Assembly: GCA_944363995.1 (NCBI GenBank)
Contig: CALVVV010000002.1
Coordinates: 1 to 34,355 of the forward strand
Direction: 5' to 3'
Source: an uncultured Bacilli bacterium
Lineage (GTDB): Bacteria > Bacillota_I > Bacilli_A > RF39 > UBA660
DNA: 34,355 nt
Shown here: in pieces, positions 1 through 1,608 of the stretch
Position numbering within the stretch: the first letter of the stretch is position 1
Layout of the letters: the number at the start of each line of letters is the position of its first letter
Position numbers and translations under genes: made by a program
Notes under the pieces: model-generated
The model's input: only the letters and a program-made list of their open reading frames with translations
Told to the model about the DNA's origin: nothing
Database searches by the model: none

Positions 1-2
1 TT

Positions 3-890
3 GAAAGTGGCACATCTTCAACTGGAACAGTAAGTTGTACTGATAATATAAGCGGAACAGATGGTACAACATCAAGTGAAACTTGTACAAATGCAAGTAA
101 TGGCAATTGGTATACCCATCCAGCATTTACATTTGGTAGTGATGAATTAGCTGGATTTTGGGTAGGAAAATTTGAAATAAGTGGAAGTACTAGTAAAATA
201 ACAATAAAACCAAATGTAAGTAGTTTAAGAGATCAATCAGTATCCTCATTTTTCACAGCAATCCAAAATATAAATACAACCTATAGTTTAAATGGCGATA
301 GTCATATGATGAAAAATATGGAATGGGGAGCAGTAGCCTATCTATCCCATAGTAAATATGGAATAAATGAAGAAGTAGGAATAAATAATAATGATAGTTA
401 TATAACAGGATGTGGAGCAGCGGCAGAAAGTAGTTCATCAAGTAGTTGTAATGCCTATAATACAACAAGTGGAATGTTAGCTAGTACGACCGGAAATATT
501 TATGGTGTATATGATATGAGTGGAGGAGCCAATGAATATGTAATGGGTAATATGGTAAATAGTAGTGGTGCATTTCATTCAAGTAGAGCTGATTTTAGTA
601 CATCACCCGAATCAAAGTATTATGACAAATATACTTATGGTACATCTTATGAAACGCATGGACGAGGAAAATTAGGCGATGCTACCAAAGAAACATTAAA
701 GACTTTTGGAAACACTGGTGGTGGATGGTATAGTGATTACCCGTACTTTCCGTACTCTAGTCATTCCTGGTTCCTTCGGGGCGGCTTTTGCAACGCTGAT
801 TCGATTGCCGGTTTGTTCTACTTCGGCAACCTTACAGGTAGTAGTAATTCCAACTATTCCGCCCGTGCAGTTGCGTGTGTTCGCGGGTAG
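3..890 (+). CDS. 3' part of a surface/secreted protein with an FGE-sulfatase-like (C-type lectin fold) domain; 5' end lies outside the window
   Basis: The frame of ORF 306..890 stays open back to base 3. FGE/SUMF1-type motifs occur in order: ELAGFWVGKFEIS, MMKNMEWGAVAY, GNIYGVYDMSGGANEYVMGN, and SWFLRGG...GLFYF...SARAVACV at the C-terminus. Confidence 0.6.
   Translation, partial: ESGTSSTGTVSCTDNISGTDGTTSSETCTNASNGNWYTHPAFTFGSDELAGFWVGKFEISGSTSKITIKPNVSSLRDQSVSSFFTAIQNINTTYSLNGDSHMMKNMEWGAVAYLSHSKYGINEEVGINNNDSYITGCGAAAESSSSSSCNAYNTTSGMLASTTGNIYGVYDMSGGANEYVMGNMVNSSGAFHSSRADFSTSPESKYYDKYTYGTSYETHGRGKLGDATKETLKTFGNTGGGWYSDYPYFPYSSHSWFLRGGFCNADSIAGLFYFGNLTGSSNSNYSARAVACVRG
738..887 (+). other. 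Candidate DGR variable region (VR) inside the C-terminal CLec-fold segment
   Basis: Hand counts: 721-890 is about 16% A and 51% GC, against about 37% A and 35% GC for 541-720. About 20 of 50 codons end in C (tac, ttc, tcc, ggc, aac, gcc), against about 10 of 144 upstream codons of the same ORF. Confidence 0.45.
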
Positions 891-982
891 CAAACTTTAG
901 TTACTTTCCTTTTTCTTGAATAACTGAAGTAATAAAAGAAGATAAAATGGTAGAAAATAGAGAAGAAAGACATCGGAGTAAT

Positions 983-1017
983 GCCCGACCTTTCTTCTTT
1001 TTTTTCAAAGGTCGGGC
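983..1017 (+). other. GC-rich hairpin: 11-bp stem GCCCGACCTTT/AAAGGTCGGGC with a 13-nt T-rich loop
   Basis: A perfect inverted repeat is seen directly, about 90 nt after the stop of the lectin-fold gene. No clean T-tract follows it, so a terminator role is uncertain. Confidence 0.4.
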
Positions 1018-1608
1018 TTGGAAATAGTATAGGATACAGAATAGGTATATAAAGTGGTATAGGTAGTGAATATAAAGACACGAACGAAGTGAGTGTTTCG
1101 CCTCACTCGTCCGAAGGTTGAGAGAGGTGGGGTATATTGTGTAAATAAAATGTAAAACACAAATGTTAAAATAGAAAGTCGTAAAAATGTCAAAGTTAAA
1201 AAGTCATAAAATTCTTTAAATTTATCACTCAGACTGTTGACCAATAGGTCTATAAATGATTTATTTATCAATAGTTTGTAATATGCTTTTGTATATTTCT
1301 TAATTCAACAGTTTTTATTTTAACATTTATAAGTTTCCCAATATGATAATTCTTCTAAATTTTGATTACAAATTTTAGAAATGTTTTTTCTACAATTTTA
1401 ATTATAAATCAGATGAAATATCTATCATAGTAGTTATTTTCATTGAATATGTCACATAACTTTGATTTCTTATATCTGTTAATTCTTTAACTAAAATCTC
1501 TTTTTATTTTTCTATTTATACAAATACCACTTTATTATGTAGTAATTATATCAAAAAAACTTTGCGAAGAAAATTTACTCTTTTTTAATGGTATAATTAA
1601 AAAAAATG

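Follow-up and report, generated by a model that had tools for sequence, protein, structure and literature searches.

The stretch of DNA considered here, called the window below, comprises 34,355 nucleotides from an uncultured Bacilli bacterium (contig CALVVV010000002.1, positions 1 to 34,355, assembly GCA_944363995.1). It carries rpsB, tsf, a D-Ala-D-Ala carboxypeptidase gene, an Impact_N gene, a radical SAM gene and three tRNA genes, and is ordinary chromosome. At its very beginning lies an open reading frame (ORF) on the plus strand (3..890), which is still open at base 1, with its 5′ end beyond it. The ORF runs for 295 codons and a stop codon and ends in ...SARAVACVRG*. It is read here as the 3′ part of a target gene of a diversity-generating retroelement (DGR). 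The segment directly before the stop codon (733..887, plus strand, 155 nt) is very probably the variable repeat (VR) of such an element. The protein would be a type IV pilin-like surface protein from an uncultured Bacilli genome of ~25% GC, with the VR closing its C-type-lectin-fold domain at the C-terminal end.

The tail of the gene stands out by its base composition. Positions 721-890 contain 15.9% A and 50.6% GC, against 36.7% A and 35.0% GC in the preceding 180 nt and 41% A and 25% GC in the whole 34 kb. The segment 717-886 is the most GC-rich 170-nt segment of the window and is nearly the lowest in A as well: counted over all 170-nt segments, only 0.026% reach the GC content of the tail and 0.06% are equally poor in A. 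Codon usage shifts along with it. Codons ending in C (NNC) account for 20 of the 56 codons in the tail and for 19 of 239 upstream, and the individual pairs follow the same trend (TAC:TAT 4:2 in the tail versus 0:14 upstream, TTC:TTT 3:2 versus 1:8, AAC:AAT 3:1 versus 1:19). A preliminary description of the window, made from the letters alone, had already pointed to this sharp change. Its figures for 721-890 were reproduced by computation; its hand counts of codons had the direction of the shift to NNC right, while the exact numbers were slightly off. A GC-rich, A-poor tail is present in every family member examined (GC 0.44-0.52, A 0.15-0.22), in genomes of ~24-27% GC.

The preliminary description had also stated that the template repeat (TR), the accessory protein Avd and the reverse transcriptase (RT) of a DGR are absent from the window, and this is indeed the case. 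A repeat search found no TR-like second copy of 720-890 within the window, and no msl, avd or RT gene was detected in it when the MutS_I-like, Avd and RT proteins of a related cassette served as tblastn queries. The search for the repeat beyond the window, which had been proposed, was more rewarding: a homologous TR was found beside bAvd and a DGR-type RT in related genomes. The AAY codons (Y being C or T) of the putative TR were deduced from three VRs (the window, L001 and L003), and one genome per species was scanned with the pattern TGGTTCAATCGGGGCGGCAAC. A match was obtained in L004, a metagenome-assembled genome of an uncultured Bacilli, with a homologous target that has the same 3′ end and is followed by the same spacer as in the window. 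A 155-nt TR lies ~200 nt beyond this shared downstream spacer. Between the TR and VR of L004 (a shorter copy of the L006 cassette described below), 18 adenine sites and no non-adenine sites differ inside the repeat, next to one 3-nt indel. The second match of the scan, L005, turned out to be a VR with unmutated AAC codons and not a TR. A degenerate VR/TR motif scan of viral contigs gave no match, so that the element is probably not phage-borne.

The complete arrangement can be seen in L006, a longer contig from related uncultured Bacilli that encodes the same protein as L004. The order of genes and elements is uvrD, asnS, the target with its VR, the spacer, the TR, an 83-aa MutS_I ORF, bAvd, an RVT_1 RT, a lipoprotein gene and then rnfC. 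The domains were assigned as follows: MutS_I is matched at E 1.3e-8, bAvd (PF22296) at E 7.6e-17 with 62 bits against a 40-bit cut-off, DivGenRetAVD (NCBIfam) at E 1e-17 and RVT_1 at E 1e-15. The RT of this cassette and its relatives carry the motif IPIGNYTSQ, which is typical of DGR RTs. Further intact cassettes, with a small MutS_I ORF followed by avd and RT, are found in L010 and L011. Read by eye, L006 has a promoter-like motif (TTGTAC...TATAAT) upstream of the TR and a hairpin with a GC stem and a T-run downstream of it, which suggests that the TR may have its own promoter and terminator. The preliminary description had sought the missing parts either upstream of base 1 or elsewhere in the genome. 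In the intact relatives, however, they lie downstream of the target and not upstream, and at the locus in the window they have been deleted.

The window VR is gapless and colinear with the TRs at L006:9263-9417 and L007:5658-5812, to which it is 82.6% and 85.2% identical (blastn). The differences are concentrated at the adenines of the template. The L007 TR is mismatched at 18 of its 39 adenine sites and at 5 of the 116 others (Fisher p 6e-9), the L006 TR at 19 of 40 and 8 of 115 (p 7e-8). The 18 sites of adenine-to-N substitution, as listed against the L007 TR, span 738..855 (plus strand) and mostly correspond to the first and second positions of TR AAC and AAT codons. The homologous TRs and these adenine-specific mismatches uphold the view of the C-terminal stretch as a DGR VR, and the proposed check that mismatches should fall at adenines of the second copy gave the same answer for L004 (18 versus 0) and for the window. 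A similar distribution separates the two alleles of this exact locus that were compared, namely the window and L001. The latter is a contig from another sample, with housekeeping genes ~99.6% identical to those of the window, on which the gene extends 476 nt further upstream. The two VRs differ at 17 of 40 adenine sites and at 5 of 115 others (p 5e-8).

The variability can be followed through the family. Across 62 homologues, the column entropy amounts to 2.71 bits at codons with a TR adenine in position 1 or 2, 0.94 bits at the remaining codons of the VR and 0.66 bits in the upstream part; the variation at specific codon positions that had been foreseen is thus located at the TR AAY codons. 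In the 90% cluster P0005 (P0128-P0130), only three substitutions are found over the ~500 aa before the VR, all of them in P0130, and every VR is different. In cluster P0025 (P0121-P0127), the VR is identical in 8 members and the differences lie elsewhere. Actively diversified and frozen targets therefore coexist in the family. Identical VRs such as those of P0025, and a composition sharply unlike that of the host genome, are also what would be expected if the GC-rich tail were a fixed sequence unrelated to DGRs, be it a segment gained by horizontal transfer or an element with a structural or RNA role. This explanation is highly improbable: the TR of the relatives, with its adenine-specific differences, adjoins bAvd and RT, and the hypervariability sits exactly at the AAY codons. 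Moreover, a search of 860-1760 against Rfam, with E up to 1, returned only a chance microRNA match, and the other parts of the cassette, the RT gene among them, seem to share the AT-richness of the host, as judged from its Lys/Asn/Ile/Tyr-rich products and not from GC values.

The VR makes up the last 51 codons of the target gene, at the C-terminus of a C-type-lectin fold. The domain concerned (90..887, plus strand) is FGE-like and of the kind used by DGR variable proteins, as derived from an AlphaFold2 model and Foldseek. With 60 diverse cluster representatives as input, the model of window residues 30-295 reached a predicted local distance difference test (pLDDT) score of 94.3 and a predicted template modelling (pTM) score of 0.92; the model built from 61 close homologues was unusable (pLDDT 36). 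In the comparison with the PDB, the best match is 5vf4 (E 1e-9, probability 1.0, TM 0.58), at ~17% sequence identity. This structure is TaqVP, the DGR variable protein of Thermus aquaticus (bioRxiv 10.1101/432187). It is followed by TvpA, PorK, Mtd, FGE, EgtB and PvdO, with TvpA (2y3c) as the fourth-ranked fold match and the second distinct protein after three TaqVP chains. The assignment to an FGE/C-type-lectin fold in the preliminary description is thereby substantiated at the structural level, as the best matches of the model are DGR variable proteins and FGE-family enzymes. The profile search that it had proposed gave a divided result: the Pfam FGE-sulfatase family stays below threshold, and the best sequence-profile match is the DGR variable protein 5vf4 itself (E 1.6e-4). 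The relationship to FGE is visible only at the level of the fold.

The 3′ end of the VR (858..887, plus strand, TCCGCCCGTGCAGTTGCGTGTGTTCGCGGG) is nearly invariant and resembles an initiation of mutagenic homing (IMH) element, with the GC-rich core GCGTGTGTTCGCGGG at 873-887. The core is identical in the VRs of the window, L001, L006, L007 and L010 (five out of six examined) as well as in the two TRs; the L005 VR has GTATG for GCGTG, two bases different. The rest of 858-887 varies only at 869-870 (GCGG in the L007 VR, GCTG in the L010 VR, GCAA in the L006 TR). Compared with the L007 TR, the last A-to-N site is 855, and no such difference is found 3′ of it. The near-invariance of the core across VRs and TRs agrees with the IMH-like character that had been ascribed to the GC-rich 3′ end. 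The A/G difference in GCA(A/G)TTGCG was considered as a discriminator between IMH and IMH*, and was ruled out by the G at this position in the L007 TR.

In intact loci, the IMH and stop codon are directly followed by a hairpin with a 9-bp AT-rich stem and a 4-nt loop (GTAGCAAAC-TTTA-GTTTGCTAC), and no such hairpin follows the TR. A hairpin that is present after the IMH and absent after the TR is the arrangement that was shown to promote homing in BPP-1 (PMC3240598). DNA folding yields -7.9 kcal/mol for L006 and L007 (z -4.4, 0/200 shuffles), -5.0 for L005 and -2.8 for L001. The window retains a remnant of this target-site hairpin (887..904, plus strand) without 4 nt of the 3′ arm, and no hairpin forms at 887-904 on DNA folding: the 4-nt deletion has abolished it. 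The preliminary description had drawn attention to a GC-rich hairpin downstream. The relevant one is instead this AT-rich stem after the stop codon, and not the GC-richer inverted repeat at 983-1017.

From the stop codon onwards runs a non-coding spacer (891..1165, plus strand) that is conserved after the VR in all 'ACVRG'-type target loci and contains inverted repeats at 983-1017 and 1086-1108. Its counterparts lie at L001:1361-1640, L006:8819-9104, L007:5247-5520 and on the minus strand of L005; it is not present after the TR. In the five-locus A4 alignment, which runs past the spacer, the mean column identity is 85%. For intergenic DNA of a 25%-GC genome, so strong a conservation over ~270 nt is unusual. 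The spacer could be a 3′ untranslated region, a terminator or a part of the homing target.

Beyond the spacer, a remainder of the cassette can still be recognised. Window positions 480-1172 align to L006 8411-9104 (the 3′ end of the target, VR and spacer), and they adjoin a cassette stub (1161..1211, plus strand) that matches L006 9612-9661, just upstream of the MutS_I-like gene and downstream of the TR and its terminator. The local alignment score of the stub is 29.5 against a shuffle mean of 16.4 (0/300 shuffles as high), and the comparison with L010 gives 38/42 identities (0/300 shuffles). Since blocks that adjoin in the window are separated in L006, a segment of ~510 nt, comprising the TR, its promoter and the post-TR RNA region, was deleted here. 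The resulting TR-less junction is common to the window and L001. Between the stub and rpsB follow ~530 nt (1212-1746) without a notable ORF or similarity to msl, avd or RT, an unusually long non-coding stretch for this compact genome. Neither the window-specific deletion junction nor the IMH-plus-hairpin motif was matched in two scans of JGI (Joint Genome Institute) metagenomes, so that no extra alleles of the locus were obtained.

The state of the cassette in this lineage can be seen in L007, which is syntenic with L006 and comes from the same sample as L002, a contig with 99.6% identity to the window. The target of L007, an asnS-linked paralogue, is 91.9% identical to window 1-1164. The TR has been kept, and msl, avd and RT residues 1-192 are missing; what remains of the RT is interrupted (L007:6068-6637). 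Between the VR of L007 and its own TR there are 6 non-adenine mismatches, versus 0 in L006. Such decay of the RT seems to be common in these Bacilli, to judge from the sequences: in the RT cluster P0131, 7 of the 15 members are truncated or frameshifted (P0252, P0256, P0257, P0258, P0260, P0261 and P0263). In one RT of this clade, the catalytic motif reads MDNF for MDDF. Neither among the 120 RT homologues listed nor among the 15 members of P0131 was an intact RT found that is nearer to the L007 lineage than the L006/L010 type.

Over positions 1-1160, the window and L001 are ~5% diverged, against ~0.2-0.4% in the flanking genes. The assemblies of four other samples break at or inside the target-spacer segment (L002, L008 and L009 start at ~1277-1314, L001 inside the gene), as is expected if the segment is repeated, i.e. 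paralogous, in the genome. Look-ups through S2 and EF-Ts gave no upstream extension, as every other assembly breaks off at this repeated segment or within it. The elevated divergence, the breaks at a paralogous segment and the 91.9% identity to the asnS-linked paralogue over 1164 nt would all suit an explanation in which the differences between alleles and paralogues arose mainly from recombination or gene conversion shuffling VRs that had been diversified elsewhere, and not from local retrohoming. As the main cause, such shuffling is unlikely. The excess at adenine sites lies far above the 5% divergence of the flanks, the VRs of the paralogues in hand match neither allele, and gene conversion would still need VRs made by a DGR.

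Taken together, the locus can be explained with the established DGR model. The TR RNA would be copied by the error-prone RT, helped by Avd and here by the small MutS_I-like protein, and the RT would misincorporate opposite template adenines. The cDNA would then take the place of the VR, with the GC-rich IMH as its anchor and the adjacent DNA hairpin as an aid. Adenines would be present in the TR only where variability is wanted, in AAY codons, with the scaffold residues encoded by C-, G- or T-ending codons; about half of the TR adenines have since been replaced in the VR. A TR that spares adenines and the replacement of those that it has would together account for the odd composition of the tail. 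As for the copy in the window, it would descend from a full cassette that lost its TR, and would then have been diversified in trans as a remote target. The latter step is suggested by the two alleles, which share the TR-less junction and differ mainly at adenine sites (17/40 versus 5/115), pointing to diversification in trans after the loss.

A number of observations weigh against this account. Activity at this locus is inferred: the cognate TR was not found, with the genome of the window covered to 34 kb. The window VR shows 4-5 non-adenine mismatches to the nearest TR; a few such differences are expected if this TR is not the exact cognate or if the pair has drifted. Gene conversion between paralogues could account for some of the VR difference, given the contrast between ~5% and 0.2-0.4% divergence. 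It is not provable that L007 and the window come from the same genome, and an intact second DGR elsewhere in the genome is possible. Concerning the fold, PF03781 (FGE-sulfatase) scores only 14.6 bits (E 0.027) on the window protein and does not reach the gathering threshold of 23.3 bits, and the matches in 29 of 61 homologues are weak as well, the best at E 7e-4 below threshold.

It has to be considered, furthermore, whether the VR is still being rewritten. Possibly, though this is the weaker option, it is still an active remote target, in which case an intact TR/msl/avd/RT cassette elsewhere in the genome would rewrite 738-855 in trans. Remote targets have been documented for non-phage DGRs (PMC5758913), and most family members examined are without an adjacent RT (L003, L005, L012, L013). 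The 17 of 40 adenine sites at which the window and L001 differ, despite their common TR-less junction, point in the same direction, as does the intact IMH core (873-887) of the window. Inverted repeats were found beside the IMH in only about a third of DGRs (PMC5758913); as they are not universal, the loss of the hairpin does not prove inactivity. Against ongoing diversification count the destruction of the hairpin beside the IMH, the 4-5 non-adenine mismatches, the truncated RT in the sole cassette that the matching lineage and sample yielded, and the lack of an intact RT closer to this lineage than the L006 cluster among the 120 listed homologues and the 15 P0131 members. With its hairpin broken, its non-adenine mismatches and a decayed cassette in the matching lineage, the VR is somewhat more likely to be frozen than to be an active remote target. 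The VR of the window strain is thus probably no longer diversified.

The protein itself belongs to a very large family. The 452-aa fragment of L001 has at least 8000 homologues, many of them with PF07963 (N_methyl) or an Ig-like domain, and full-length homologues measure ~450-780 aa. The C-terminal domain alone is represented by 3483 clusters at 50% identity (E<=1e-3). Neither Pfam nor NCBIfam gives a match above threshold on the window protein. The prepilin methylation motif N_methyl (PF07963) is found in 41 of 61 aligned homologues, the family profile matches the type IV pilin PilE1 at E 1e-8 among solved structures, the GspG and ComGC models match the N-termini of homologues, and TIGR02532 is reached in P0029 and P0006. 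By these matches, the full-length homologues would be type IV pilin-like surface proteins; the 5′ end of the window gene itself lies outside both the window and L001. In L003 (17900-20648), the genes for a T2SSF-family platform protein and an A24 prepilin peptidase are situated 7-9 kb downstream of a target paralogue, which is consistent with a pilin-like processing of the targets as type IV pilins.

Some members deviate from this plan. The giant proteins P0265 (3713 aa), P0266 (4516 aa) and P0276 (4340 aa) contain 5-6 tandem copies of the C-type-lectin domain of the window protein. A second class of targets ends in ...AVLCE, ...AVLVP or ...AVLIP, and has neither the GCGTGTGTTCGCGGG core nor the 270-nt spacer. 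In the sole member of this class with inspected downstream DNA (L003:11319-11370), a different short hairpin, TTGATA-AAAA-TATCAA, follows right after the stop codon.

A wider picture may tentatively be drawn from these data. The family, with at least 3483 clusters at 50% identity and a C-terminal domain without a passing Pfam or NCBIfam assignment, might be made up of surface proteins that resemble type IV pilins, occur in uncultured host-associated Bacilli and are perhaps diversified in trans by a single chromosomal DGR with MutS-like protein (MSL), Avd and RT. Behind each VR, the conserved element of ~270 nt with its IMH, hairpin and additional inverted repeats might act as a portable homing signal that recruits scattered paralogues, and the frequent loss of RT or TR, of which this locus is an instance, might repeatedly freeze the adhesin repertoire.

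Among the neighbouring genes, rpsB (1747-2778) deserves mention. The encoded S2 has a Lys/Glu-rich C-terminal extension of ~100 aa with a terminal Rho_N domain (PF07498, E 2.6e-8).

The locus demonstrates that, in a very AT-rich genome, base composition by itself can be enough to recognise a DGR VR, and it ties a large unannotated pilin-like family of uncultured gut-type Bacilli to DGR diversification. This would imply pili that carry a programmable ligand-binding tip. The locus is also a clear example of DGR decay, with a deleted TR, a broken target hairpin and truncated RT genes in the clade, and it bears on surveys in which VR-like targets are taken as evidence of active hypermutation. The known DGR mechanism is left unchanged by these results. 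No paper on DGR-diversified type IV pilin-like proteins of Bacilli was found in the library searched. Targets of pilin type have received only passing mention: a 'GspG-type pilin' domain is named as rare among VR-bearing proteins (PMC11661182), and type V pilus adhesins are described in Bacteroides (bioRxiv 10.1101/2024.11.15.621889).

Several described systems show parts of the same design. DGRs with an MSL protein correspond to 'Architecture D' of Wu et al. 2018, the group to which the Legionella DGR belongs, with reported MSL proteins of 112-283 aa (PMC5758913). Like these, the L006, L010 and L011 cassettes have a small MutS_I ORF followed by avd and RT, a separate TR, and a C-terminal C-type-lectin VR in the target. 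They differ in that the MSL here is only 83 aa long, the order is target, TR, msl, avd, RT, and the TR is suggested to have its own promoter and terminator; the window itself lacks all cassette genes. The Treponema denticola DGR (TvpA) is likewise chromosomal and not phage-associated, with one cassette serving several scattered paralogous targets with FGE-like C-type-lectin VRs. An HRDC accessory protein and lipoprotein targets are found there, and MSL plus Avd and type IV pilin-like targets here.

At the level of the target protein, TaqVP (PDB 5VF4) shares the VR at the C-terminus of a C-type-lectin fold and is the best structural and sequence-profile match, although its sequence identity is just ~17% and it is not a pilin fusion. 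The mechanistic prototype, the DGR of the Bordetella phage BPP-1 with its target Mtd (PMC3240598), likewise has adenine-specific mismatches and a GC-rich IMH that closes the VR on its 3′ side. A short hairpin with a 4-nt loop comes directly after this IMH, and none follows the TR. The BPP-1 element is phage-borne, however, with a single adjacent target and a GC-rich stem, whereas the stem here is AT-rich (GTAGCAAAC) and broken in the window. In the type V pilus tip adhesin DGRs of Bacteroides (bioRxiv 10.1101/2024.11.15.621889), an adhesive pilus component of host-associated bacteria is diversified as well, but the pilus is of type V and not type IV-like, the phylum is another and so is the target architecture. 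Overall, the system works like a canonical DGR, and its closest relatives are the MSL-type chromosomal DGRs and the multi-target system of Treponema (PMC5758913).

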